The position numbers were made by a program, and so were the translations under genes. Below, one piece after another: positions 33,531 to 50,820 of a DNA stretch of 64,000 nt. Position 1 is the stretch's first letter; every line of letters starts with the position of its first letter. The notes beneath the pieces are model-generated. The model did no database searches. It was not told the DNA's origin and saw only the letters and a program-made list of their open reading frames with translations. Source of the DNA: Desulfomicrobium sp. (GTDB taxonomy: Bacteria; Desulfobacterota; Desulfovibrionia; Desulfovibrionales; Desulfomicrobiaceae); assembly GCA_040768745.1 (NCBI GenBank), contig JAXGMI010000001.1, forward strand, positions 1,376,001 to 1,440,000. The letters are read 5' to 3'.

Positions 33531-33670
33531 TTTTTATTTCTTATGAAATATTTATCACGATCTGGTTACTGTGGCTTATTCCCGCAACTGAAACCTATCT
33601 GGTCTGGAATGAATGAGCATGACGTCTTAGCATGGCAATGAGTGGGTATTGATCCAAGAAATTTATTTTT

Positions 33671-34406
33671 GGGTCATGACTAGAACAGCGGGTTTGTCCT
33701 GATGATTTTGAGCAGGACTTTATAGATGTTCTGGCCCCTATTGTTAAATCGAAATTCGCATTCTTTCAAATGCAAGAAAAAGGTTACCTTGCTGACACCT
33801 CTGAACTTGGCAAGGCGAGTTTTCGAATAGCCCCAAAAGCTTTCTATGCCATTGATATGGCTACGTTCATTGGCAAATTCATTGTCTCCGTGGTTGACCC
33901 TGAAATGCTTCTGGTACCCTATATCCACCAGGCCGTTATAGCCGCGCCATCCATCGGAATGGATGACGCTTTCGACGCTGACTCGACCTCGGATAACCGC
34001 CTGAAGTGTGGCACGGCTGCAATCAGGCACGATCTCGGTATAGACTTGGCCTTGGCGCTTGAAGATGCCAAACACAATGGTTTTACTGCTTGCGCCACGA
34101 CCTCGGAGTCCTTTGACTCGGCGAGGCCCGAAGTAGCTTTCATCAACTTCGATTTCCCCGAGAACTGGGGCTTGTCGCTCGCAGTACTCAGCGATTCGTT
34201 GGCGCAAGGCCATGAGATACCTGTTCACGGTATTTCTGTTTAGGCCAGTCACCAGGGCGATCTGGGATGCATCCAGATCAAAGGAAAAGAGCTTCAAGAA
34301 TTGCCTGAATTTGGCCTCTGAAATTTTTGAACGATTTGCGTACTTATTAACCCTTGCCATGACTCGATCCTAGCAGATTTGTTATCCGCTGTTCTAGTCA
34401 TGACCC
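33671..34406 (-). mobile_element. IS1595-family insertion sequence, copy 1 (736 bp)
   Basis: 21-bp perfect TIRs GGGTCATGACTAGAACAGCGG; 8-bp TSD TTATTTTT at 33663-33670 and 34407-34414. Confidence 0.95.
33680..34360 (-). CDS. IS1595-family DDE transposase
   Basis: EVDESYFG, HSDGWRGY, HINGIESFW, ECEFRFN; stop codon lies inside the TIR. Confidence 0.95.
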   Translation of the reverse strand: MARVNKYANRSKISEAKFRQFLKLFSFDLDASQIALVTGLNRNTVNRYLMALRQRIAEYCERQAPVLGEIEVDESYFGPRRVKGLRGRGASSKTIVFGIFKRQGQVYTEIVPDCSRATLQAVIRGRVSVESVIHSDGWRGYNGLVDIGYQKHFRVNHGDNEFANERSHINGIESFWGYSKTRLAKFRGVSKVTFFLHLKECEFRFNNRGQNIYKVLLKIIRTNPLF

Positions 34407-34629: not shown

Positions 34630-34705
<76 letters not shown>

Positions 34706-34713
34706 TTTTCGTG

Positions 34714-34790
34714 TGGTCGGGATGAGAGGATTTGAACCTCCGGCCCCTTGAACCCCATTCAAGTGCGCTCCCAGACTGCGCTACATCCCG
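34714..34790 (-). tRNA. tRNA-Pro(GGG)
   Basis: CGGGATGTAGCGCAGTCTGGGAGCGC...GAAT-GGG-GTTC...GGTTCAAATCC...CCCGACCA, 77 nt. Confidence 0.97.
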
Positions 34791-37233: not shown

Positions 37234-37266
37234 GTGCGCTCCTTGGGTAGAACAATCTTTTTTTTA

Positions 37267-38002
37267 GGGTCATGACTAGAACAGCGGGTTTGTCCTGATG
37301 ATTTTGAGCAGGACTTTATAGATGTTCTGGCCCCTATTGTTAAATCGAAATTCGCATTCTTTCAAATGCAAGAAAAAGGTTACCTTGCTGACACCTCTGA
37401 ACTTGGCAAGGCGAGTTTTCGAATAGCCCCAAAAGCTTTCTATGCCATTGATATGGCTACGTTCATTGGCAAATTCATTGTCTCCGTGGTTGACCCTGAA
37501 ATGCTTCTGGTACCCTATATCCACCAGGCCGTTATAGCCGCGCCATCCATCGGAATGGATGACGCTTTCGACGCTGACTCGACCTCGGATAACCGCCTGA
37601 AGTGTGGCACGGCTGCAATCAGGCACGATCTCGGTATAGACTTGGCCTTGGCGCTTGAAGATGCCAAACACAATGGTTTTACTGCTTGCGCCACGACCTC
37701 GGAGTCCTTTGACTCGGCGAGGCCCGAAGTAGCTTTCATCAACTTCGATTTCCCCGAGAACTGGGGCTTGTCGCTCGCAGTACTCAGCGATTCGTTGGCG
37801 CAAGGCCATGAGATACCTGTTCACGGTATTTCTGTTTAGGCCAGTCACCAGGGCGATCTGGGATGCATCCAGATCAAAGGAAAAGAGCTTCAAGAATTGC
37901 CTGAATTTGGCCTCTGAAATTTTTGAACGATTTGCGTACTTATTAACCCTTGCCATGACTCGATCCTAGCAGATTTGTTATCCGCTGTTCTAGTCATGAC
38001 CC
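37267..38002 (-). mobile_element. IS1595-family insertion sequence, copy 2 (736 bp)
   Basis: Same TIRs as copy 1; own 8-bp TSD TTTTTTTA at 37259-37266 and 38003-38010. Confidence 0.95.
37276..37956 (-). CDS. IS1595-family DDE transposase, same protein as copy 1
   Basis: Identical 226-aa translation in the ORF track. Confidence 0.95.
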   Translation of the reverse strand: MARVNKYANRSKISEAKFRQFLKLFSFDLDASQIALVTGLNRNTVNRYLMALRQRIAEYCERQAPVLGEIEVDESYFGPRRVKGLRGRGASSKTIVFGIFKRQGQVYTEIVPDCSRATLQAVIRGRVSVESVIHSDGWRGYNGLVDIGYQKHFRVNHGDNEFANERSHINGIESFWGYSKTRLAKFRGVSKVTFFLHLKECEFRFNNRGQNIYKVLLKIIRTNPLF

Positions 38003-39289: not shown

Positions 39290-39533
39290 AACGTGTTTTT
39301 TTCACGGAGGGAGAACAGATGTAAAGGAGCAGAAGAACATTGTTCTGTTCCGGTATTGCCGGGACAACTGGCGCACAGTGTGACGCACAGTTTAGGCACT
39401 GTTCTGTGTTCAGGACAATCTTCTGTCCTGTGCGGTCGGAGGCGTCGGACAATGCTCACGAACCACCCTGCCTTTCTGCGAAGAAGGCCGTGCAGCCCGA
39501 CTCCCCCGGTTTCAGGAAGGGCACATCGGCAGC

Positions 39534-39911
39534 TCAATCCTGTTTGATCTTGAACGTGACGTAGGCGGTTCTGCCTTCTGGAATGCGGTACTCAAGCCTG
39601 AGTTTCTCGATGGCCGATGCCATGCCCGGAATGTTGATCAACCCCGAGGATTCCCCGGATTTGAGCAATCCAGGTATTTTCAGGGCAACGGGCTGGCCCT
39701 GAACAGGGATCAGGGTCAGCCCGTCCAAATGGACGGTGGCCCCCTCGATCTGGAAGCGGAGGTTGTCGATCTTGCCCAGTTTTTCACCCACTTCGATGGT
39801 GGCAGACCTGTCCGAAGGCGACAGCTCCACCGGGTTCCGGGTGAGCCAGGGGCCGGCCAGGGCCGGGGCAGCTAAAAGCAGGCTGATGAAAATGAGGCAG
39901 AGTGTTTTCAT
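39534..39911 (-). CDS. Hypothetical exported protein
   Basis: Signal peptide MKTLCLIFISLLLAAPALA; GGAG RBS. Confidence 0.65.
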   Translation of the reverse strand: MKTLCLIFISLLLAAPALAGPWLTRNPVELSPSDRSATIEVGEKLGKIDNLRFQIEGATVHLDGLTLIPVQGQPVALKIPGLLKSGESSGLINIPGMASAIEKLRLEYRIPEGRTAYVTFKIKQD

Positions 39912-40060
39912 GAGTGCTCCCTGAATTTGTTCAGGGCAGTCTAGACCGGGAAGCCGGAGCTGATCAAGAGCCGGTTTGGCGCCATTACGTCCCGGGGGCA
40001 TGGATGTGGACAACGATGCCAGAGAGCAGTTATCTGATTCTCCCAGCTCTGGAGGTGGCC

Positions 40061-40081
40061 GTGAGTATACTGATCAAAAAA
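40061..40081 (+). repeat. attL core
   Basis: GTGAGTATACTGATCAAAAAA, identical to 49540-49560. Confidence 0.92.
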
Positions 40082-40231
40082 TACGGTTTCTCTCACTTTC
40101 TCCGAAATACCGTCTAGCCCTTGATATTCCTTGATTCCGGCTGAAAATATCCCTTGACGTTCTCCATATTTTTGCCTATTTTTGCCTTGAAAGTTGGGTT
40201 GAGGGTTGGGTCAAAACTGGAGGCGGTGAAC

Positions 40232-41371
40232 ATGGCGGCACAGGGCAGAAACAAGACCAAGTATCCTGGCGTCTATTATACCGAAGGCAAGTCCACGACG
40301 GGCAAGTCCATTCGCCGCTACTATGTCGTCTTCAAGCGTGAGGGGAAGGTTTATGAAGAGGCCGCCAAGGTGCTGGTTGACGGCGGCCCTGATACCCGTC
40401 CGGCCGAGACCCCACAAGAGGCCAGCGCATGGCGCTCCCGCCGCATTGGCGAAGTTACCCAACAGCAGGGGAAGGGCAAGCCCGCCCTGACCGTGGATGA
40501 AATCTGGTCAAAGTGGGTTGAAGGCATGAAAGGTCGTGGCGGGCTGCACGCGGCGAGAAGTCGGTACAAGATGCACGTCGGCCGGTTTTTCGGTAAGCGG
40601 GTAGCCTCTGAGTTGTGCACGTTCGACGTGACCAGATTCCGCCGCGATCTGGAGCGGAATGGGTTGGCCCCTGCTTCCGTCAAGTTCTGCATGTCGCTTC
40701 TCTCGCAGCTTCTCAGGTGGGCAGCGGATCAAGACCTGATCCAAGACCCTGGACTCAAGTTTGATTATCCCAAATTCGACAACCAAAAGACCGAGAGCCT
40801 GACCCCGGAGCAGATCGGCCGGTATTGGGAAGTTCTCGACGCATGGCCGGATCAGCATATTGCCGACTTCTTTCGGGTCATGCTGCTGACGGGTGTTCGT
40901 AAGACGGCGCTGGCAAATGTCCGGTGGGATGACATCAACTTTGAGAACGGTTTTTTGACTCTCCGCGCCGAGACCTCCAAGAGTGGCAAGGTCAAGTCAA
41001 TCCCGCTTTCCGCTCAAGCATTGTCCGTTTTCAAAAGCATCCCCAGAACAGAGGACTCTGATCTTGTTTGGCCGGGCTGGAATGGCCCGCGCACAAATTT
41101 CAGCGGTCATGGGAGAGCTATCGCCAAGGCAGCAGGCTTGCCAGATAGTTTTCGAGGGTGTCATGGTCTTCGCCATGCCTTCGCGTCCGCCATGGCCAGC
41201 AGTGGGCGCGTTGATCTGTTCACGCTGCAAACTCTGCTGACCCATTCCAGCCCAAACATGACGCAGCGCTACAGTCACTTGTCCAGCGACGCTCTGCGCA
41301 GGGCGGCAGCGGTGGCTGACGACGTACTGGTCCCAGGTCCGGCGCTGAAGGTGGTGGCCGGGAAGGAATAA
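40232..41371 (+). CDS. int: Tyrosine recombinase / integrase
   Basis: TGVRK, HGLRH, LLTHSS, TQRYSH catalytic motifs; N-terminal KYPGVY arm-binding-like domain; GGAGG RBS. Confidence 0.93.
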   Translation: MAAQGRNKTKYPGVYYTEGKSTTGKSIRRYYVVFKREGKVYEEAAKVLVDGGPDTRPAETPQEASAWRSRRIGEVTQQQGKGKPALTVDEIWSKWVEGMKGRGGLHAARSRYKMHVGRFFGKRVASELCTFDVTRFRRDLERNGLAPASVKFCMSLLSQLLRWAADQDLIQDPGLKFDYPKFDNQKTESLTPEQIGRYWEVLDAWPDQHIADFFRVMLLTGVRKTALANVRWDDINFENGFLTLRAETSKSGKVKSIPLSAQALSVFKSIPRTEDSDLVWPGWNGPRTNFSGHGRAIAKAAGLPDSFRGCHGLRHAFASAMASSGRVDLFTLQTLLTHSSPNMTQRYSHLSSDALRRAAAVADDVLVPGPALKVVAGKE

Positions 41372-41425
41372 ATTTCGGGCCAGGCAAAGAGGTGGTGCTC
41401 TCTGCCCGGCCCTGGATCTTCTCAG

Positions 41426-42073
41426 GTGCAAGCGGAGGTGGCTTGGATGCATTGGGAAAAATTGCTTGGATATGAGCCTGCAAGCAGACTGCTTGTGAAA
41501 GACACAGGAGATCCGGCGCTTGTCCACATCCGAATCGTTGTCGAAGATGAAGAGAAAGACAAAGGCGCTATTCTGTGGGCTCTGCGCAAGACGTTTGAGA
41601 ATGGGCACGCCCTCCCGCCTGACCTTGGGCTTGCCGTCTGTGATCTTCTAGAGGCCAAGAACCCCGCCCATAAGCCCCCGACCCCAGACGCACAGAAGCT
41701 CCAGGGCCTAGCCAGTGCAGAGCTTTACGCGCAGATCCTCGGGGCTATCCGCGTCAAAAGAATAATGGAGGACCATCCTCGTTTTGCGGAAAAAGCCGCC
41801 CTTGACCTTTGCAAGCATCCCGGCGCGGGCATGTCTGTGGGAACAACCAAGTTCAAAGAATTTGAGAGGGTGCATCGGCTGGCGATTCTGTGTGGAGAGG
41901 TCCGGGAGATCCACAAGATGCTTGCCGACGGCATCATCACAATCGAAGGCGACTACCAGAAATGGATCAAGGCGCTCAAAAAATGCAAATTTCTTCCAGT
42001 AACCCAGACGTGCCGAGACCGCCTAGAGTGGATGTTCAAGAAAAACAGTCAATTAGATAGGTCGGGCAACTGA
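41426..42073 (+). CDS. Hypothetical protein between integrase and AlpA-like gene
   Basis: Intact 215-aa ORF; start uncertain. Confidence 0.6.
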   Translation: MQAEVAWMHWEKLLGYEPASRLLVKDTGDPALVHIRIVVEDEEKDKGAILWALRKTFENGHALPPDLGLAVCDLLEAKNPAHKPPTPDAQKLQGLASAELYAQILGAIRVKRIMEDHPRFAEKAALDLCKHPGAGMSVGTTKFKEFERVHRLAILCGEVREIHKMLADGIITIEGDYQKWIKALKKCKFLPVTQTCRDRLEWMFKKNSQLDRSGN

Positions 42074-42173
42074 CGACTTAAAAGCCCCTCTCATAAGCGT
42101 TTCTTCTCTCTATTTTCTAGCCGTGTTCTGCAATCCCGCAGTTCACGGCTTTTTACTTTTCCGAGGTAATCAC

Positions 42174-42353
42174 ATGGAACGAGTAAACGAGAAAGAAGCG
42201 GCAAAGTATCTTGGAATGTCAGTCAAGTGGTTGCAGCAGTCGCGGTGCTACGGACGCGGCCCGAAGTACATCAAGATCGGTCGGAGCGTCCGCTACAACG
42301 TCACCGATCTGGATCTGTACATCAAGTCCCGCACGATCAACCCAGCAGTGTAG
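42174..42353 (+). CDS. AlpA/excisionase-like HTH protein
   Basis: NEKEAAKYLGMSVKWLQQSR..GRGPKYIKIGRSVRY; GAGG RBS. Confidence 0.88.
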   Translation: MERVNEKEAAKYLGMSVKWLQQSRCYGRGPKYIKIGRSVRYNVTDLDLYIKSRTINPAV

Positions 42354-42364
42354 GGGGTGCGACT

Positions 42365-42580
42365 ATGAAGCCAACAGAATTCACCGTCACGACTGCGGAG
42401 TATATCTCCCTGGCTGGCATCAATCCCAAGGGCCTGCAACAGTATCTGCGGGATGCGAAGGTCAAGGGCCGCGACTACATCGTCACCGGCAACCCGGACT
42501 GCATGGAGTTGTATTTTCGGAAGATCAACGGCCGCATCTATTTCAACCGGGCACAGATCGAAGTGCTCGTGCAGGAATAA
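42365..42580 (+). CDS. Hypothetical protein (71 aa), possibly DNA-binding
   Basis: MKPTEFTVTTAEYISLAGI...; tightly packed after the AlpA-like gene. Confidence 0.6.
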   Translation: MKPTEFTVTTAEYISLAGINPKGLQQYLRDAKVKGRDYIVTGNPDCMELYFRKINGRIYFNRAQIEVLVQE

Positions 42581-42591
42581 GGAGTGGCAAC

Positions 42592-42825
42592 ATGATGACA
42601 ATGAAAAAGCCCGCCGGGCAAGGGCGAGCTTATGAGACCGGGCGCGGCGGTGATCCAAAAATCCGCAAAAAAAGCATGGCCGAAAATGACATTATTGTCA
42701 AGCTCTGCCATGCTTACGCCGGTCTCTTGAACGCTATGTTCATGCCCCTCTGCAATAATGCATCGGCATCGTTGGCAAGTTCATTTCTACCCAACCGGGA
42801 AACCCAACTCGGGAGGGCAAAATGA
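42592..42825 (+). CDS. Hypothetical small protein upstream of the primase
   Basis: AAGGAG RBS; stop overlaps the primase ATG (ATGA). Confidence 0.4.
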   Translation: MMTMKKPAGQGRAYETGRGGDPKIRKKSMAENDIIVKLCHAYAGLLNAMFMPLCNNASASLASSFLPNRETQLGRAK

Positions 42826-45200
42826 ACGCAGAAATTACAAACGGCATCTTTATCGACACGCTTTTCGGCAAGCTCCCTGCAGACGCTTGCGTACCTGTGG
42901 CAAGCATCAAAGACGTATCTGCCCCAGGATGGCCAGCTGATAGTTTTGTGAATGGCCAGGAATTTACGGTGCGTCATGGCTGGAATAGCTACTATTGCTT
43001 GGGCATCCATCGCAAGGACGACCCCCAGCCACGGAGAAAAGAGAGCTGCCTAGGTCTATGCATGGTCATGCTCGACGACGTTGGGACGAAGGCAGATCGT
43101 GACAAGATCGATCTGACGCCGACCTACGCAATAGAGACCAGCTCTGGCAACTTCCAACTTGGCTACAGGCTGACCGTCCGCGTCACCGACATGGGACTTA
43201 TTGATCGGCTGGGCAAGGCAATTATCAGGAAGGGACTCTCTGACCCTGGAGCTGGTGGTCTAGGGACGAGATACGCCAGGCTCCCACAGTGCTGGAACAG
43301 CAAGTCCAATCCGCCGTTTCAGTGCCGATTGACCGAGTGGAACCCCGAGATTGCCTACTCTCCACAGGAGCTGATTGACGGTCTCGGTCTGGAGTTGGAC
43401 CCGCCCAAGCCCGAGCGCAAGGCCGCCGATCCCACCAAGAGGCAGTGTCTCTCTGAAATTGACCCGTATGTCCGCAAGGCTCTGGAAAATGAGTGCGCAT
43501 CCGTGGCGAGCGCTCCACAGGGACAGCGCAACGCGCAACTAAACCAGTCATCCTTCGCAATTGGTCAGTTTGTCGGCGGCGGTGAACTTGACGAGCAAGA
43601 GGCCGTCAACGCTCTGCAGCAGGCAGCGGCGGCTTGTGGGCTGGGAGAGACCGAAGCTGACAAGACAATCCGGTCGGGCCTGACTGCAGGCATGGCTGAA
43701 CCCCGCCCGGCCCCAGGAGAGAGTGATTGGAACCCCGACGGCGGGCAGCGGGCCGGGAAGAGTAAATTCGTAAATTCGTTAAATTCGTCTGTTAGTAACG
43801 AAGATCCTGACGCCTGGGCCCCTACGATCAGGACATGGCCCAAACTCGAACGAGCTGCGCTTCCCGGCATCGTGGGTGACTTCGTAGACCTGGCCACGGA
43901 CGGCAGTGAAGCAGATCCGGCGGCGGTGCTGGCAACCATGCTTGTGCGCTTTGGCGTGGAGGCTGGCTCTCCCGAGCCAAGCGCCCGCCCCCACGTCTAT
44001 GTGGGCGAGTCCAGACATGAATCCCGCATCAATGCCGTCATCGTCGGCAGGTCGGCCAAGGCCAGAAAGGGCACGTCCGGTGCTCCCGTGGCCAGGCTGT
44101 TCAAAGTTCCCGAGGGCAGCGTGGACGCCCCTGTCATGGGTGCAACAAGTCTAGGCCCTCTCTCGACGGGTGAGGGCATCGTCTACGCAGTGCGTGATGC
44201 TCTGGAGTCGTGGGACGAGAAAGAGCAGGAATTCAAGGTCACAGACCCCGGCGTGAAGGACAAGCGCCTCTACGTCCAAGAGGAGGAGTTTGCAGCGGCG
44301 ATCAACGCCGGGAAGCGTGACGGCAATACTCTTTCGGCTACCCTTCGCGCCCTGTGGGATTCGGGAACCCGTAGCCCGATGACCAAGACCTCAAGGACGA
44401 AATGCACAGACGCGCACGTCGGTATCCTGGCCCATATCACAATCGATGAATTGGCCATGAGCCTGTCTGCCTGCGACAAGCTGAACGGCTACGCCAACCG
44501 CTTTCTGTGGGTGCTGGCCAGACGTACCAAGCGCGTGCCCAGGCCCCGGAGAATGCCCGACGATCTGTTCATCCCGATCCGCAATGAAATATGGCGTCGG
44601 CTTAACCTGGCTCATGCTGCTGGTCGGATGCGTCTGACCCCGGCTGCGGGCGATCTGTGGGATGCGGAATATGATCGGCTGACCGAGGACCGGCCCGGCA
44701 TCGCTGGTGCTATTACGGCGCGTGCAGAGGCGCAGGTGGTCAGGCTCTCCATGATCTATGCCCTCTGTGGCGGGCAACCCGAGATCGACGCCGCGCACGT
44801 CCAGGCAGCGCTGGCCCTGTGGCGGTATGCCCAAGCATCTGCAGAGTATATCTTCAACGAGGACTCTGTGGGCAGCAAGCTGGACTGCAAGGTCAAAGAG
44901 ATCCTCTCGTGCGTGCCTGCTGGGATGAGCTTGACCGAGATCCACAACGCCACGGGGAACAACCACAAGGCTGCAGATCTGCGTAACTCCATCCAGAGGC
45001 TTGTGGACGCCGGGCTGGTCAGAAGCGAGTCAGTCAGATCCGAGGGTGCGGCGAAGCCGAAGACCGTTTTTTTCTCAAACGAAGAAACTAATTTTACGAA
45101 TTTACGAATTTACTCCGACGAGGAGCAAGACAGTAAATTCGTAAATTCGTTAAATTCGTACATTCGTACGGATGAAATCCCCGACGAGGTGACGATATGA
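42822..45200 (+). CDS. Replication protein: RepB-type primase domain, PriCT-like linker, DUF3987-like domain
   Basis: MLDDVGTK, IETSSGNFQ, RYARLP, GQRNAQLN, GRSAKARKGTS, STGEG, EEEF, NGYANRF. Confidence 0.8.
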   Translation: MNAEITNGIFIDTLFGKLPADACVPVASIKDVSAPGWPADSFVNGQEFTVRHGWNSYYCLGIHRKDDPQPRRKESCLGLCMVMLDDVGTKADRDKIDLTPTYAIETSSGNFQLGYRLTVRVTDMGLIDRLGKAIIRKGLSDPGAGGLGTRYARLPQCWNSKSNPPFQCRLTEWNPEIAYSPQELIDGLGLELDPPKPERKAADPTKRQCLSEIDPYVRKALENECASVASAPQGQRNAQLNQSSFAIGQFVGGGELDEQEAVNALQQAAAACGLGETEADKTIRSGLTAGMAEPRPAPGESDWNPDGGQRAGKSKFVNSLNSSVSNEDPDAWAPTIRTWPKLERAALPGIVGDFVDLATDGSEADPAAVLATMLVRFGVEAGSPEPSARPHVYVGESRHESRINAVIVGRSAKARKGTSGAPVARLFKVPEGSVDAPVMGATSLGPLSTGEGIVYAVRDALESWDEKEQEFKVTDPGVKDKRLYVQEEEFAAAINAGKRDGNTLSATLRALWDSGTRSPMTKTSRTKCTDAHVGILAHITIDELAMSLSACDKLNGYANRFLWVLARRTKRVPRPRRMPDDLFIPIRNEIWRRLNLAHAAGRMRLTPAAGDLWDAEYDRLTEDRPGIAGAITARAEAQVVRLSMIYALCGGQPEIDAAHVQAALALWRYAQASAEYIFNEDSVGSKLDCKVKEILSCVPAGMSLTEIHNATGNNHKAADLRNSIQRLVDAGLVRSESVRSEGAAKPKTVFFSNEETNFTNLRIYSDEEQDSKFVNSLNSYIRTDEIPDEVTI
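45096..45159. repeat. Iteron-like AAATTCGT repeats (putative origin) in the 3' end of the primase gene
   Basis: acgaatttacgaatttact facing agtaaattcgtaaattcgttaaattcgt; the same 28-mer also occurs at 43761-43788. Confidence 0.7.
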
Positions 45201-45502
45201 ACGCCGTCACCGTCATCCGCGCCCGTGGCGCAATCCCACGTATCGACGCGGCCGGGAACCTGGCTCTTGACCTCTCCCGCGTGCCGAAATCGCTCCGGCC
45301 CGAGGTCGTGAACCTGGCCAGGCAACACAAGACCGACATCATCAACGAGTTGAGCGGAGGGCCTGCGGGCTCTCCCGCTCCATCCATCCCGTGGGCCTGC
45401 CCTCTCGGGCATCGTGAGTTCTGGCTCTCCGACTACAATCTGAAGATCTGCGCCAAGTGCCATCCCCGGCCGGTCAAGGGAGGTGCTGCATGGAAGCAAT
45501 GA
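45197..45502 (+). CDS. Hypothetical protein with C-terminal Zn-ribbon-like motif
   Basis: CPLGH...FW...ICAKCHP; ATGA overlap with primase. Confidence 0.7.
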   Translation: MNAVTVIRARGAIPRIDAAGNLALDLSRVPKSLRPEVVNLARQHKTDIINELSGGPAGSPAPSIPWACPLGHREFWLSDYNLKICAKCHPRPVKGGAAWKQ

Positions 45503-45720
45503 CCGAGCGCCTGCTGGATCTGTGGATGAAGGCGAAGCTGGCCGATAAGGACGGATTCCTTCTCATGGTCGGCGGCGGGCATAGTGGGATGCCGTGGTGG
45601 AACCGAGCGCACGTCAACGAGATGCTGGCAGCGTGGCGGGCTCTCCCGAAGCATACGCAGACGGCATTCCTGACCGTGGCCGTCAACGAGGAGCCAGAGG
45701 TGCGTCATGAGGACGCCTGA
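45490..45720 (+). CDS. Hypothetical protein (76 aa)
   Basis: GGAGG RBS; overlaps both neighbours. Confidence 0.55.
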   Translation: MEAMTERLLDLWMKAKLADKDGFLLMVGGGHSGMPWWNRAHVNEMLAAWRALPKHTQTAFLTVAVNEEPEVRHEDA

Positions 45721-45877
45721 CATTCACGAGCGCATCGCCACGGCTGAGGACGAAATAAAGGGCCTTGAATCCATGATCGACGCCAGGACGCGGAAGTTAT
45801 GGGCTGAGATCCAGAAGCTACAGGCCGAAGTCCTCGAACTACGCAACAAAGACAACGCCAAGGAGCCACAAACATGA
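45707..45877 (+). CDS. Small coiled-coil-like protein (56 aa)
   Basis: MRTPDIHERIATAEDEIKGLESMIDARTRKLWAEIQKLQAEVLELRNK...; GAGG RBS; ATGA overlap with next gene; not in ORF track. Confidence 0.6.
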   Translation: MRTPDIHERIATAEDEIKGLESMIDARTRKLWAEIQKLQAEVLELRNKDNAKEPQT

Positions 45878-46332
45878 AGCCAAGTGCATGGTTAGGAGTT
45901 GACCCCGGAAAGTCGGGTGCGTGCGCCGTCATCCACGACGGTGGGCACCTCGTTGCAGATTGGCCTGGAGATCCGGCTGGAGCTGCTGAAGTGCTGCGCG
46001 GGTGGCTGGACCGCTTCGAGATCCGTCTGGCGGCCCTGGAGAAAGTTGGAGCCCGGCCCGGTCAAGGTGTCTCGTCTATGTTCAGTTTCGGCCGCAACCT
46101 CGGGGTGTGGGAAGGTATCTTTGCCTGTCTGCGCATCCCCTACGTCATGCCGACGCCGCAACAGTGGCAGAAAGGACTTGTCATGCCATCCGACGGGGCA
46201 GACCCGAAGGACCGCGCCCTGACCGTAGCCAGGCGACTTTTCCCGGACGCAGACTTGCGCTTGAAAAAGCATGACGGCCGAGCTGACGCCCTGCTGCTGG
46301 CATGGTGGGCAAGGAGACAGACTGCAATATGA
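45874..46332 (+). CDS. RuvC-like Holliday junction resolvase (phage type)
   Basis: GVDPGKSGA, ALEKV, MFSFG, PQQWQK, DGRADALLLA. Confidence 0.82.
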   Translation: MKPSAWLGVDPGKSGACAVIHDGGHLVADWPGDPAGAAEVLRGWLDRFEIRLAALEKVGARPGQGVSSMFSFGRNLGVWEGIFACLRIPYVMPTPQQWQKGLVMPSDGADPKDRALTVARRLFPDADLRLKKHDGRADALLLAWWARRQTAI

Positions 46333-46517
46333 CAGCAATGGATGAATTACTAATTCACGACCGCATATCACAATGGCCTGGAATTGCGATAAAAGTTACT
46401 TTGAACCCAACCGGCTACCCTACCCTAAGTCCAGAGTTGGCAGTAAATGGACTGCGTTATCTTGTCCAGAAAATGCCGATGCCCGTATATTCTGTCCTAA
46501 CGGAGGCGCCGACATGA
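46329..46517 (+). CDS. Hypothetical protein (62 aa)
   Basis: ATGA overlaps at both ends. Confidence 0.45.
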   Translation: MTAMDELLIHDRISQWPGIAIKVTLNPTGYPTLSPELAVNGLRYLVQKMPMPVYSVLTEAPT

Positions 46518-46723
46518 AAGAAAATAAACCCCCGGTCAGTTGTCCTACTTGTGGCGGGTGCGACACGATACGACGCAGAGGTCCACAAGGTCTATGCGAG
46601 ACCTGTTATCAGCAGAGACACGAATGTCGGAGCTGTGGCCAGCGCTTTTTGAGCTTTTGGGACTTGTCCTCGACGCGCTGTTACGGTGCCGCCCCCCGTC
46701 TGGAGGTGGTCGCCAATGCCTGA
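46514..46723 (+). CDS. Small Cys-rich zinc-finger-like protein (69 aa)
   Basis: CPTC, CETC, CRSC; GGAGG RBS. Confidence 0.6.
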   Translation: MKENKPPVSCPTCGGCDTIRRRGPQGLCETCYQQRHECRSCGQRFLSFWDLSSTRCYGAAPRLEVVANA

Positions 46724-47174
46724 AAAAACAGCTCGGAAACAGACCTCCACACGATTCAAGCCGGGCAGATCCGGCAACCCTGCAGGACGCCCCAAGGGTG
46801 CGCGGAATAGGGCCTCTGTGTTGGCGCAGGCGCTCATGGAAGATCAGACCGCGGCCGTGGTGCAGACCGTCATCAATGCGGCCCTCACGGGCGATATGAC
46901 CGCGTGCAAGCTCATTGTGGAACGGCTCATTCCGCCGGTGAAGGAACGGACCATTGACGCGGATCTGAAGTTGCCCGCGACCATTACGGCCGCAAATGCC
47001 GGTGCTGTTTTTGCGGAGATCTTCAAGGCCGTCTCCGGCGGGCGGCTTGTCCCTGGCGAGGGCAAGGTGCTGGTGGAGATGATGAACGCCTATTTGAGCG
47101 CCTGCGAATACAGCGAGCTGTCCGAGCGCATTTCCGAGTTGGAGGAAACAGCTCCGAGGAACAAGCGATGGTAG
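46716..47174 (+). CDS. DUF5681-type protein (small-terminase-like N-terminus)
   Basis: RFKPGRSGNPAGRPKGARN, ALTGDMTACKLIVERLIP, ELSERISELEE. Confidence 0.75.
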   Translation: MPEKTARKQTSTRFKPGRSGNPAGRPKGARNRASVLAQALMEDQTAAVVQTVINAALTGDMTACKLIVERLIPPVKERTIDADLKLPATITAANAGAVFAEIFKAVSGGRLVPGEGKVLVEMMNAYLSACEYSELSERISELEETAPRNKRW

Positions 47175-47554
47175 CCGCGTCATCCCTACGCAGGCGGCTG
47201 CGCAAATTGCCCCAGGCGAAGCCCGCGCCTGTGTGCTGGACAATCGACGTTTACCCCGACGGTCGGGAGCTGGACCATTGGACCGGTCGGCCGTGGCCCG
47301 TGCCGGAATACCTAGCCCGCCCGGCTGGAGCGCCTGACCTGGTGCTGCGGCTGACGATGGGCGACGATGGCGAGGTGGGGGCGTTGGGGGAACATGGAGA
47401 TGGTCCGGGACGTGGGCACAAAAGAGTTGATAATATAAACTCTTTAACCACCACCAACCAGGTTCAGGTTGATAATATCAACTTGAAAACCAAAGGCGGC
47501 ACCGACCCCACTTACCTACTCGCCAGGATGCAACGCCCTCGTGGAATGAGGTGA
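47168..47554 (+). CDS. Hypothetical protein, apparently chimeric
   Basis: N-terminal SLRRRLRK; 3' part AT-richer and contains two palindromes. Confidence 0.5.
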   Translation: MVAASSLRRRLRKLPQAKPAPVCWTIDVYPDGRELDHWTGRPWPVPEYLARPAGAPDLVLRLTMGDDGEVGALGEHGDGPGRGHKRVDNINSLTTTNQVQVDNINLKTKGGTDPTYLLARMQRPRGMR

Positions 47555-47558
47555 CGGC

Positions 47559-47834
47559 ATGAAAGGAACCGAATCTTTACGCCGTCGCCTGCGCAAAATG
47601 TCCAACGAGTTGCCCGAAGGGATGCAGAACCTTCCCCGCGTGCTGGAGTACGACGAGAGCGATCCTGCAGGCCCGTGGGATGGATTCAAGACCAGGGAAG
47701 AGGCCGCGGACTACTGGTGGAAGGTGCATCGAAGCCGGATCTCTTTCGTGACGTACAACCCGGACGGCTCCGACGATATGTGGGGCACGCCGCTGCCAGG
47801 CGAACCGGATTATACTGATTGGTTTATCGGCTGA
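47559..47834 (+). CDS. Hypothetical protein (91 aa)
   Basis: GAGG RBS; N-terminal SLRRRLRK. Confidence 0.6.
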   Translation: MKGTESLRRRLRKMSNELPEGMQNLPRVLEYDESDPAGPWDGFKTREEAADYWWKVHRSRISFVTYNPDGSDDMWGTPLPGEPDYTDWFIG

Positions 47835-47877
47835 AAAATTTAACCGCCCGAGAGACCGGGCGCGGAGGTAAAGAGAA

Positions 47878-48822
47878 ATGGCAGTTCAGAAATTAGGCAA
47901 TGGCCGATTCAAGGTTTTTCACAAGGAAGTGGCCGCGCCCACGGCGGAAATGGAACACCTGCGCAGTCAGGCCCCGCGGACGCCCACGGGACTTTCCGGC
48001 TTTTTGCAGGGTAGCCTGCACGCGAACGGCTTCAAACAACTTCGCGCGTATGTCGCGAACAGTGACAGCGAGTGGACGCGCCAACAGATTCTCGACATGG
48101 ACAACTCCTTGTCGAACATAGCCGACGAGATCCAGTTGGACGACAAGTTGACCAAGGCCCGCAACACCGTGCTGGACGTGGATTTGACCGACGCGGCCCG
48201 CCGCAAGCGTGCGCTGGTGATTATTGCGGACCTGCTGGCCGACATTCACGGACGCCACGGGCGAGTGGTGGCTCGCGCCATGACAGCGCTGAATGAAGCC
48301 GTGGACGTGGTGAAACTGGCCCTTGCGCCCGACCTGACCGGCAACGAGCAGGTGCGGGAGCTGCGAGCGCAGGAAGTCCGCCGCGCCATCTTCGACACGG
48401 ACAAGGGGGAACGTGCGGCACTGGTGCTGGACCTGGGCAACCGTGCGGCCCTGGAAGGGCTGCTGGCCGTGGAAAGTTGTCCCTTGGGACGCTTGGTTGA
48501 GCCGGAGGTTGTGGGCCAGGCGAAGCGTGGCGCGCTGTCCAAGATGGGCGTGGACTTTCTGCTGGATCAGATCGAGGACCGCCGGGACATCCTGCGCAAC
48601 GTGGCCGCGCGCTGCGACATGCTGGAACAGGGCATCAGAGAGTTTCTTTCGGCCTATGGCGTGAAGCCCGCCGCGCCTGTGACCTGGATAGTAGCCACGG
48701 CGTCCGCCATCGAGGAGAGCGGACGATTCTTGACGATTCCGGGTGGCGGTGGCGTCCATTACCGCGCCCCGGAACCGCCGCCGGTTGAGGATGAGGGCGG
48801 AGAAGGCGAAGGCGAGGGATAG
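47878..48822 (+). CDS. Hypothetical, probably alpha-helical protein (314 aa) with acidic tail
   Basis: GGAGG RBS; Ala/Leu/Arg/Glu-rich; ends PPPVEDEGGEGEGEG. Confidence 0.75.
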   Translation: MAVQKLGNGRFKVFHKEVAAPTAEMEHLRSQAPRTPTGLSGFLQGSLHANGFKQLRAYVANSDSEWTRQQILDMDNSLSNIADEIQLDDKLTKARNTVLDVDLTDAARRKRALVIIADLLADIHGRHGRVVARAMTALNEAVDVVKLALAPDLTGNEQVRELRAQEVRRAIFDTDKGERAALVLDLGNRAALEGLLAVESCPLGRLVEPEVVGQAKRGALSKMGVDFLLDQIEDRRDILRNVAARCDMLEQGIREFLSAYGVKPAAPVTWIVATASAIEESGRFLTIPGGGGVHYRAPEPPPVEDEGGEGEGEG

Positions 48823-48885
48823 TTCAATATCGCCTCCCGCGATTCGACATAGCCCGCTGAAGTATTCGTTGCCTGTGACAATCAG

Positions 48886-49100
48886 ACATCCGGCGTCAAA
48901 TTGACACGTGACAATTTGAACCAGCTCGCGCACGCGCGGGACTGACAGTGACGGAAATGGGGCAACGGTTGCACGATTAACCAGCTCGCGCACGCGCGGG
49001 ACTGAATATCACTTCGTAAGTCAACTTACGAAGTCCGAGGACCAGCTCGCGCACGCGCGGGACTGAACATCCGGCGTCAAATTGACACGTGACAATTTGA
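48886..49100. CRISPR. CRISPR-like mini-array: three 26-bp repeats and four 34-35-bp palindromic spacers; no cas genes in the window
   Basis: ACCAGCTCGCGCACGCGCGGGACTGA at 48920, 48980 and 49041 (period 60-61 bp); first and last spacers identical. The structure is certain; CRISPR function is not. Confidence 0.5.
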
Positions 49101-49209
49101 TAGACAAGGCCCGACACCTTTCAGAAATCCACAAAGCCCCTTCACCCCTATGGCCCGTCCTTGTATCCGCACTGCTTGCTAAAGAATGGTCCGTCAAAGA
49201 CACAAAGCA

Positions 49210-49290
49210 GGTTGAGGATGAGGGCGGCGAGGGCGGAGAAGGGACCGAGGGATAGTTCAATCGCGCCTCCCGCGATTCGACATAAAGCCC
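49210..49290 (+). repeat. Imperfect duplication of 48783-48855 (3' end of the 314-aa gene and its downstream sequence)
   Basis: ggttgaggatgagggcgg...gagggatagttcaat..cgcctcccgcgattcgacata at both loci. Confidence 0.85.
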
Positions 49291-49351
49291 GGTCAGTGGG
49301 ATGCTGGCCGGGCATCTACTCAAGGCCGCATCGCAAATTGCGTGCATCATA

Positions 49352-49388
49352 TAGGTCATCCGGCCGAGTGCTGGGTGGCCTTTTTTTG
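49352..49388 (+). terminator. Rho-independent terminator near the right end of the element
   Basis: aggtcatccggc-cgagt-gctgggtggcct followed by a T-run. Confidence 0.75.
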
Positions 49389-49539
49389 TGATGACAATCC
49401 CCGGATAATCGAAGAAAAGTGTCCCATATCCTCGACGGTGAAAAGCCCGCTAATGGACTCCCGATGCGTCATTTGTTGGGTTAAAAGTTGGGTAGAGCTT
49501 TCGTGTTATATATATTTCAAGGCATTAGAGGTGTGAAGA

Positions 49540-49560
49540 GTGAGTATACTGATCAAAAAA
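49540..49560 (+). repeat. attR core, equal to the first 7 codons of the amidohydrolase gene
   Basis: GTGAGTATACTGATCAAAAAA. Confidence 0.92.
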
Positions 49561-50820
49561 GTGCGTCTCAAAGGCGACATGGTGGACGTGCTCATCAAGG
49601 GCAACCGCTTCGATTCCATCGGCACGGATATAGATGCCGCGGCCGAGACCGTCATTGACGGCACGGGCAAGGCCATCCTGCCGTCCTTCCACAACGCCCA
49701 CACCCATGCGGCCATGACACTCATGCGCGGCTATGCCGATGACATGGAGCTGCACACCTGGTTGTCAGAACACATCTGGCCGTTCGAGGCCAGACTGACC
49801 GAGGACGATGTCTACTGTGGGGCAAAGCTGGCCTGCCTGGAAATGATCAAGTCCGGGACCACGTTTTTCGCCGACATGTACTGGCACTGGAAGGGAACGG
49901 CCAGGGCCGTGGAAGAAATGGGCCTGCGCGCAGCCCTGTCGGCCGCCTTTTTCGACTTTGACGATCCTGCCCGGGCCCGGGCCATGAAGCAGCAGGTCAT
50001 GGATCTGCATGCACTCAGCGCCAGCTCTTCGGACCGCATCCAGTTCATTCTCGGACCGCATGCCATCTACACCGTCTCTGAGGACTCCCTGCGCTGGCTG
50101 AGAGAGTACGCGCATCGTCACGGTCTCCTGGTCCACCTCCATCTTTCGGAAACGAAGAAGGAAGTGGATGACTGCATAGCCAGACACGGCCGACGGCCAG
50201 TGGAATATCTGAACGATCTCGGCTTGCTGGCACCGAACCTGATTCTCGTTCACGCGGTGTGGATGACCGGGGGGGATGTGGCGCTGCTCGCCAGGCATGG
50301 GGTACAGGTGGTACACTGTCCCGTCTCGAACATGAAGCTGTGTTCCGGGCAGTTCGAATATGGAGCCATGCGGCGGCAGGGGGTGGCCGTCGCCTTGGGT
50401 ACGGACGGATGCTCTTCCAACAACAATCTGGATATGATCGAGGAGATGAAGATCGCCTCCCTGCTGGCCAAGGTTACGGCCATGGACCCCACACTCTGTC
50501 CCGCGGAAGAGAGCCTGGATCTGGCCTCGGTCAACGGCGCCCGTATGTACGGCCTGGAGGGGGGGCGCATCGCTTCCGGGCTGCTCGCGGACTGCATTCT
50601 GGTGGACCTGGATCATGTGCGCATGGTGCCGGGGCACAATGTGGTTTCCAACATGGTCTACAGCGCGAACAGTTCCTGTGTGGACACGACCATCTGCAAC
50701 GGTCGGGTGCTTATGCGCGGGCGCAAGGTCGAGGGTGAAGAGGAGATATTGGAACAGGTGCGGGCCTGCGTGGCCAGGCTGACCGGGGCCACTTCAAGGG
50801 GAGACAAGGCGTGCTCCTGA
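49540..50820 (+). CDS. mtaD: Amidohydrolase, MTA/SAH deaminase-like
   Basis: NAHTH, GPHAIYT, HLHLSET, HCPVSNMKL, LGTDG..SNN. Confidence 0.8.
   Translation: MSILIKKVRLKGDMVDVLIKGNRFDSIGTDIDAAAETVIDGTGKAILPSFHNAHTHAAMTLMRGYADDMELHTWLSEHIWPFEARLTEDDVYCGAKLACLEMIKSGTTFFADMYWHWKGTARAVEEMGLRAALSAAFFDFDDPARARAMKQQVMDLHALSASSSDRIQFILGPHAIYTVSEDSLRWLREYAHRHGLLVHLHLSETKKEVDDCIARHGRRPVEYLNDLGLLAPNLILVHAVWMTGGDVALLARHGVQVVHCPVSNMKLCSGQFEYGAMRRQGVAVALGTDGCSSNNNLDMIEEMKIASLLAKVTAMDPTLCPAEESLDLASVNGARMYGLEGGRIASGLLADCILVDLDHVRMVPGHNVVSNMVYSANSSCVDTTICNGRVLMRGRKVEGEEEILEQVRACVARLTGATSRGDKACS

Follow-up and report, generated by a model that had tools for sequence, protein, structure and literature searches.

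A Cas-less CRISPR-like array in a satellite-like island of Desulfomicrobium sp., with two units that correspond to palindromes inside phage ParB-methyltransferase genes

Satellites are known to borrow cis-acting sites from their helpers: P4 carries the cos site of P2, and the SaPIs carry pac sites. The site that a protein reads can also lie inside the reader's own gene, as with the parS site within spo0J of B. subtilis and the KorB-OB site of RK2. Phages and CRISPR loci, furthermore, exchange sequence by recombination between protospacers and spacers, as known from staphylococci. The closest described parallels to the present locus are CRISPR arrays that travel on viruses. According to the accessible parts of the relevant study, virus-borne arrays with one or two spacers and no cas genes are directed at close relatives, at sites near the position of the array itself, and the phage mini-arrays cited there are devoid of leaders and may gain spacers by recombination (PMC6858448). 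A second, biochemically distinct theme is the fusion of a ParB-CTPase to an N6/N4 methyltransferase, which the accessible part of another source describes as common, enriched in phages and of unknown role (PMC12704722).

The locus considered here lies in a stretch of 64,000 nucleotides of Desulfomicrobium sp. DNA (the window). An earlier note on this DNA had described a Cas-less, CRISPR-like array in a phage satellite, with an operator-like palindrome in every spacer, and had proposed that it was either a guide array or a DNA-level cassette of protein-binding sites, neither of which it recognized as a described system. That last statement is too strong for a guide array, given that Cas-less mini-arrays of viruses are known (PMC6858448, accessible parts); both proposals still stand, and the earlier account as a whole is partly supported. 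As far as the accessible text of PMC6858448 goes, the locus resembles the mini-arrays of SPV1/SPV2 and of phages in having one or two spacers, exact repeats, a mobile carrier and no cas genes, and resembles the phage examples in having no leader. In both cases the spacers match relatives at or near the array locus, while the carrier's own allele differs and self is spared; here there are two inner spacers, one of which (C) would target another allele of the gene surrounding the array. The differences are equally distinct: the repeats and leaders of those mini-arrays are host-like, whereas the present repeat (R) resembles none that we found and the present host is Cas-less; the present array sits inside a fragment of its target gene, flanked by a 34-bp target-site duplication; and its carrier is an integrase/primase island rather than a virus (PMC6858448, same parts). 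Mini-arrays on mobile elements being already known, what appears to be new, on the comparisons given below, is the combination: an array on an island, with a repeat that we could not place, embedded in a remnant of the gene that it would target, and with traceable units that are the probable docking palindromes of two alleles of that gene.

Direct reading of the sequence verified the layout A-R-B-R-C-R-A, in which R is a 26-bp repeat present in three exact copies (Table 1). A search with three mismatches allowed returned the same three copies only, and 0 of 100 shuffles gave any match at that tolerance. The units measure 34/34/35/34 bp (inner inserts of 34 and 35 bp), and the period of 60/61 bp is that of an array with 29-nt repeats in the same genus (61 bp). 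R can form the hairpin CTCGCG-CACG-CGCGGG, with 6 ungapped pairs, and visual inspection gives a longer stem of 9 pairs in which one A is bulged out. The positions of the repeats, the lengths of the units, the exact second A and the hairpin were all as the earlier note had given them, but it had missed that a 72-bp duplication brackets the segment and that the two copies of A are halves of one gene fragment. Direct repeats within the 23-55 bp range, parted by unique spacers of uniform length, are what defines the layout of a CRISPR array; here both ends of the array are formed by A and not by a repeat. Other classes of repeated elements were also considered. A dispersed repeat of the REP/BIME kind was rejected, as R, A, B and C are confined to the array locus in the 3.09-Mb genome (at up to 3-4 mismatches), and so were operators for the island's genes, no half-site being present elsewhere in the island. 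Four more classes were discarded by reasoning alone: integron attC sites (too short, no IntI), type III toxin-antitoxin repeats (the units differ), iterons (spacing and content) and stacks of terminators (no T runs).

Table 1. Features of the island and of the array, in window coordinates
Feature	Coordinates	Strand	Remarks
attL core	40061-40081	+	identical to 49540-49560; longest word common to both ends
Tyrosine integrase	40154-41371	+	PF00589, E 1.3e-20; phrog_1, E 2e-55
Primase/helicase-like replication protein	42822-45200	+	DUF3987 below Pfam cut-off; PHROG primase and helicase, E 6e-6 and 4e-5
P0001, last island gene (314 aa)	47878-48822	+	no Pfam or PHROG match
Copy 1 of P0001 3' end with post-stop hairpin	48780-48851	+	repeat families D2, D4
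Left gene fragment	48854-48919	+	48856-48918 matches P0032 (19/21 residues)
A(1)	48886-48919	+	palindrome 48896-48919; ends left ParB-methyltransferase fragment
R copy 1	48920-48945	+	exact copy
Unit B	48946-48979	+	34 bp; dyad at chance level
R copy 2	48980-49005	+	exact copy
Unit C	49006-49040	+	35 bp; palindrome 49011-49034; in-gene palindrome of another ParB-methyltransferase allele
R copy 3	49041-49066	+	exact copy
A(2)	49067-49100	+	exact copy of A(1); opens right gene fragment
Right gene fragment, including A(2)	49067-49209	+	tblastn alignments; nine-protein match
Copy 2 of P0001 3' end with hairpin (remnant)	49207-49284	+	duplicate of copy 1
Terminator-like hairpin and T run	49353-49391	+	closes the + strand unit; kept in L006
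attR core	49540-49560	+	first 21 nt of amidohydrolase gene (49540-50820)

The carrier is an island of 9.5 kb (40061-49560), bounded by 21-bp direct repeats and located at the 5' end of an amidohydrolase gene (PF01979; the 'mtaD' of the earlier note). As the island has inserted at the first 21 nt of this gene, the native upstream region (now 40020-40060) has been swapped for that of the island (49392-49560). Besides the integrase and the primase/helicase-like protein, which bear out the earlier claim of a small mobile carrier, its products include a RusA-like resolvase, a DUF5681 protein and small ORFs, and Pfam and PHROG searches of the island yielded no match for capsid, tail or terminase. 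A small integrated element with integrase and replication genes, and without virion genes, fits a satellite-like element as judged from its gene content. It recalls the piracy of P4 and the SaPIs in being a small integrative element that has no structural genes and carries cis sequences of phage functions, but the sites here come from a gene for a methylase-clamp and not from packaging, and several alleles are strung together. The last gene of the island, P0001, belongs to a small family, with 28 representatives among 1.8 billion proteins and a presence in 12 of 400 genomes of the class; its predicted structure is mostly helical (pLDDT 90), and all matches in searches of PDB and BFVD had E > 0.1. 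Paired repeats of the GTTGGGT type lie near the ends of the island (40190-40215 and 49473-49497), and also at about 2550-2575 of L006, a related locus in the same genus; they are candidate arm-type sites of the integrase.

The array lies in the right end of the island, which is non-coding and pieced together from several sources. A segment made up of the final 42 nt of P0001 and the next 30 nt recurs downstream at 88-95% identity, in a duplication of 72-90 bp that brackets an insert. The hairpin that follows the P0001 stop codon, ATCGCCTCCCGCGAT, is present on both sides of this insert; in L006 the stop codon is followed by the same hairpin, the terminator and the att-proximal sequence, with nothing between them. 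The insert itself (48854-49209) consists of a 175-nt fragment of a phage ParB-DNA-methyltransferase gene with the array lodged inside. Translated, 49067-49207 matches nine proteins with PF02195 and PF01555 (E 1.8e-19 to 7.2e-10), and a single continuous gene fragment is split between A(1) with the sequence to its left and A(2) with the sequence to its right. Apart from this fragment and a weak match to a methylase, the host's own genome has no ParB-methyltransferase gene. At the DNA level the segment had no counterpart in 60 relatives and no significant one in phage or plasmid records. Thirteen island loci with members of the P0001 family displayed neither comparable downstream repeats or palindromes nor ParB-methyltransferase fragments. 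No terminator lies in the interval between P0001 and the array, which, to judge from the sequence, would be co-transcribed with P0001 as far as the terminator at 49353; neither a leader nor a promoter-like site was detected ahead of the array on the + strand, and the sequencing runs listed as holders of the array sequence include no RNA run. A remnant ORF at 49082-49255, considered as a longer fragment of P0001, gave no profile match. One frame of R translates in every copy to QLAHARD-stop, and in a metagenomic contig (X7, below) it stays open through the 30 letters that precede R. That R is the 3' terminus of P0001 was nevertheless rejected, as 0 of 4 close and 0 of 28 distant relatives of P0001 end in this way. 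R was likewise rejected as diverged ParB-methyltransferase coding sequence, no frame scoring above controls, and its frame differs relative to A, B and C.

The dyad score of a unit was the best inverted repeat that had no more than one mismatch and a loop no longer than 8, with 3000 random 34-mers of the window as the reference. A and C each have dyads of 11 pairs, a level reached by 0.43% of the random 34-mers, whereas the best dyad of B has 6 pairs, a level that 19.8% of them reach. As the dyad of B is at the level of chance, the claim that every spacer holds its own dyad is true for two of the three distinct units; it holds for A and C, but B is neither palindromic nor operator-like.

The origin of these dyads becomes apparent in the full-length homologues of the gene fragment, proteins of ~520-530 aa in which a PF02195 ParB-like domain is fused to a PF01555 N6/N4 DNA methyltransferase. 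Between conserved 'AAEV' and 'KAxHL' motifs they contain a hypervariable stretch of 11-25 residues, in which the 10 closest alleles are on average 17% identical in pairwise comparison, as against 62-81% in the flanks. We fetched 30 IMG/VR loci (L041-L070), of which 29 could be mapped and 25 were distinct, and found a palindrome of at least 10 pairs at the hypervariable stretch in 18 of the 25 distinct viral loci, compared to 3 of 531 control windows of equal size drawn from the same ParB-methyltransferase genes. These in-gene palindromes are 24-40 bp long and occupy a fixed position in the gene, while their letters vary by allele; in L057, L058, L063 and L068 the centre is constant and the two arms vary in concert. 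No second copy was found within ~3 kb in the 18 loci, and in both of two whole phage contigs (120 kb and 64 kb) the palindrome is single-copy at up to 3 mismatches. ORFs were called in 12 loci, and 30 ORFs from 7 loci were scanned; the neighbours of the ParB-methyltransferase gene in these viruses include SSB, replication initiators and primase/helicase. The palindrome is probably the docking site of the ParB-methyltransferase itself. It is like parS in that fixed-position palindromes lie in a ParB-fold gene and are allele-specific, with both arms changing; it differs in that the site here is putative and single-copy in the two phage contigs, and in that the gene for the protein is missing from the window. 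Neither the palindrome nor protein binding to it figures in the accessible parts of PMC12704722 and PMC13229309, and literature searches for a description of the in-gene palindrome returned nothing, which is not proof of its being unpublished.

Placed on this background, unit A is the ParB-methyltransferase palindrome in its native gene position, and unit C is the corresponding palindrome site of a different ParB-methyltransferase allele. The translation of C, YHFVSQLTKSE, is identical in 10 of 11 residues to positions 135-145 of P0037, in the variable stretch, and scores 53 at the protein level, where none of 885 control windows exceeded 25. At the DNA level a 14-nt core of C is identical to that of L057 (score 14, against a maximum of 10 in 436 control windows). 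A tblastn search of phage records with P0037 returned distant methylase domains only. The advice of the earlier note to look for matches inside parB genes was well founded, both A and C leading to the in-gene palindrome of phage ParB-methyltransferases. As spacers with protospacers, C corresponds to a ParB-methyltransferase allele and A to the flanking gene, and B is unmatched. Exact scans found no A core in IMG/VR or in JGI metagenomes and no C in IMG/VR, and IMG/VR offered no exact DNA protospacer. No shared PAM emerged: the 5' flanks of the two A-derived units, in the window and in the metagenomic run X7 (below), differ (CAG and CTT).

Unit B gave nothing above controls against ParB-methyltransferase genes in any frame and no match in phage or plasmid records, and a five-residue match to P0036 is seen only at the tail of a longer alignment. 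An 18-mer of B (48956-48973) is identical in two IMG/VR contigs (L033, 1427-1444; L034, 2001-2018), where it lies in a gene for an Rv2179c-like 3'-5' exonuclease (WGNGCT motif) and where the differences in the flanks track codon positions. An origin of B from the exonuclease gene was rejected, two contigs being, by a rough estimate, about the number that chance would give.

Three sequencing runs, whose data are contigs at the unitig level and not reads, bear on the integrity and the history of the array. In run X1 the array-covering contigs reproduce 48890-49096 with zero differences. X1 is possibly the source sample of the assembly, so that this match does not independently rule against an assembly artefact. 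In run X5, from another study, a contig joins 48854-48885 straight to 49067-49180, omitting exactly the 181 bp of R-B-R-C-R-A with 0 differences over 146 nt; its outer sequence on both sides is unlike the window and, by comparison with P0032, reads as an intact gene. On its own this contig may reflect loss of the block by recombination between the two copies of A; as the block-free gene is intact, we take the gene with one A to be ancestral and the block to be derived. The evidence from X5 would make the block a recent presence/absence difference. In run X7 one contig joins 48810 to 49226, which is the form of the island without the insert. A further X7 record (record 17; 151 nt, depth 4.8) has R with 1 mismatch beside an inverted A plus TAGA: R is followed by one letter and then, on the opposite strand, by the A palindrome and right gene flank (49073-49104). 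Here the junction with the gene lies at ~49105, right of the palindrome, whereas in the window it lies at 49067, left of it; in both, R is oriented with its ACTGA end towards the captured piece. Beyond the opposite end of R, the X7 record, a single low-depth contig, has at least 88 nt more, and no second R lies in them.

The coexistence in nature of the insert-free form (X7) and the block-free form (X5) would suit an array that is an inert, recent recombination scar, its palindromes having given rise to template switching or illegitimate joining between co-resident phages and islands; we regard this as unlikely. The patched surroundings, with the duplicated end of P0001 and the 175-nt gene scrap between its copies, are of the kind that a scar would leave, and the array is confined to one lineage. 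It must be young, all copies being exact, and it bears no sign of selective maintenance; the RNA fold of 48852-49206 is not above that of shuffles (z = -1.85 on the + strand, -0.97 on the - strand). Random joins, however, fail to explain three exact copies of R and units of 34/34/35/34 bp, and they leave unexplained both a second junction of R with a palindrome, in another study and in another register and orientation, and the derivation of C from the equivalent 35-bp site of a different allele. By our reasoning, fold-back or inversion between the copies of A would also predict junctions unlike that of X7.

The properties of the palindrome itself call for weighing a DNA-level cassette, in which A, present twice, and C would serve as complete parS-like sites at which the ParB-methyltransferases of different helper or rival phages load, an option that we find doubtful though by no means negligible. 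Such a cassette would recruit the clamp-methylase to the island, for protection or for sensing a helper, or titrate it as a decoy; it would need neither RNA nor Cas, and R would be a linker left by the process of assembly. A and C match the position of the in-gene palindrome, as a parS-like cluster demands; B does not, and is neither a significant palindrome nor related to ParB-methyltransferases. The whole 24-bp palindrome is present in all three traceable units, as selection for double-stranded sites would give, and in phage genes it is a cis element of fixed position, co-varying arms and single copy. Orientation is irrelevant for a palindrome, which fits the inverted copy in X7, and the absence of Cas and of a partner for R costs this explanation nothing. 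What does cost it is that CRISPR-type integration alone is known to string 34/35-bp sites between exact 26-bp repeats. In addition, the gene for the partner protein is missing from the host's own genome, so that the partner must come from an infecting phage; the 13 related island loci have no such sites; and binding of the protein to the palindrome is not described in the accessible parts of PMC12704722 and PMC13229309. A related proposal, to which we would assign a low probability, is that of a Cas-independent collection of palindromes, in which the unique ParB-methyltransferase loading sites of several phages were taken up as pieces of 34/35 bp and strung together by a process duplicating a 26-bp hairpin. 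Used on double-stranded DNA, they would draw the protective methylase of the helper to the island or titrate it away from the phage. If true, this would be a new way for satellites and helpers to interact, and it would provide a first functional clue to an enzyme fusion that is widespread in phages.

For a guide array the central question is that of Cas and of relatives of R. Cas1 is absent from the host genome, which is 99.99% complete, and a k-mer scan of this genome detected no CRISPR array; PADLOC, applied to 14 ORF products from the island and the flank to its left, gave no defence-family match. On these grounds the CRISPR-like layout without Cas noted earlier is upheld. An Rfam search of 39500-50000 at E<=1 returned nothing relevant, and one of 48850-49210 at E<=10 returned no CRISPR-DR family, the lone match being to an unrelated sRNA with 18.5 bits against a cut-off of 112 bits. 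CRISPR-Cas is common in the genus, with Cas1 in 13 of the 24 other genomes (the loci checked for Cas1 and arrays include L085, L089, L092, L094, L095 and L098), and the repeats next to it, recovered from 6 of 17 loci, fall into four families of 29, 32, 36 and 37 nt, with which R has local scores of just 4-6 out of 26. A scan of the genomes of 185,579 species for an exact 20-mer of R yielded 14 single-copy occurrences; the two inspected, in Desulfovibrio genome bins, lie inside a coding gene. IMG/VR contains no exact match to a 23-mer of R, and JGI metagenomes contain none to the full 26-mer. Across 400 genomes of the order, R had 8 single matches with 3 mismatches, as against 7 for the reversed control; the 8 are one conserved sequence of one genus, and none is repeated. 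The 30 viral loci do not contain R even with 7 mismatches allowed. Hence the array has neither the linkage to Cas of a canonical CRISPR array nor the host-like repeat or leader, with a supply of Cas, of a mini-array, and the suggestion that it borrows host Cas is unsupported, R being unlike the four genus families and the Rfam CRISPR-DR families and having no repeated counterpart in the 400 genomes of the order.

We nevertheless place first, tentatively and somewhat short of calling it probable, an orphan array of the mini-CRISPR type on a mobile element, aimed at the allele-specific palindrome of rival phages. We do so on account of the exact repeats, the inserts of one length, the derivation of inserts from a phage gene, and the two independent joins of R to a palindrome that differ in register and orientation, features that together mark capture of the CRISPR type. 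R-B-R-C-R would then constitute three repeats and two spacers without cas, seated at its own class of target. The units would have been captured by an adaptation-like process that duplicates R, and the hypervariable palindrome would have been targeted as the sole stretch that separates near-identical rival phages without a hit on self. The virus-borne mini-arrays (PMC6858448) suggest this motive for an otherwise odd concentration on one 35-bp site. Recombination at A may have brought the block into the gene, a scrap of which the patchwork right end of the island may later have acquired. Recombination between spacer and protospacer, as in the staphylococcal cases, would place an array in a phage gene at the matching site, with flanks of shared sequence, but it would require an array in which A stands on either side, and none was seen. 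In a host without Cas, an orphan array of this type could become active only if a helper phage or another strain provided the effector in trans; failing that, it would be a recent passenger.

Several observations count against a guide array. All three traceable captures (A, C and that in X7) hold the whole palindrome; by simple arithmetic, a random 34-mer overlapping a 24-bp site would span the whole site in about 1/5 of cases each. No Cas partner, cognate repeat, leader or shared PAM was found. Moreover, the array is terminated by A, and the 13 related island loci have no counterpart. That it is something other than a guide array, a set of docking sites or a scar seems to us quite improbable.

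The consequences differ with the reading. A guide array would extend mini-CRISPR warfare to satellite-like islands of bacteria and to an unknown pair of repeat and effector, and a DNA decoy would be a new means by which a satellite exploits its helper. Under any of them, a separate mobile element has collected the ParB-methyltransferase palindrome from at least two alleles, which marks the site as a focus of conflict between mobile elements. As all of this comes from a single young lineage, we present it as a lead and not as a system.

Elsewhere in the window an IS1595-family element is present in two direct copies (33662-34360 and 37258-37956) that are 99% identical and flank tRNA-Thr/Pro genes (34630-34790), an ORF of 209 aa and a GGDEF gene, and the GC content drops to 0.44-0.46 at 32-34 kb.
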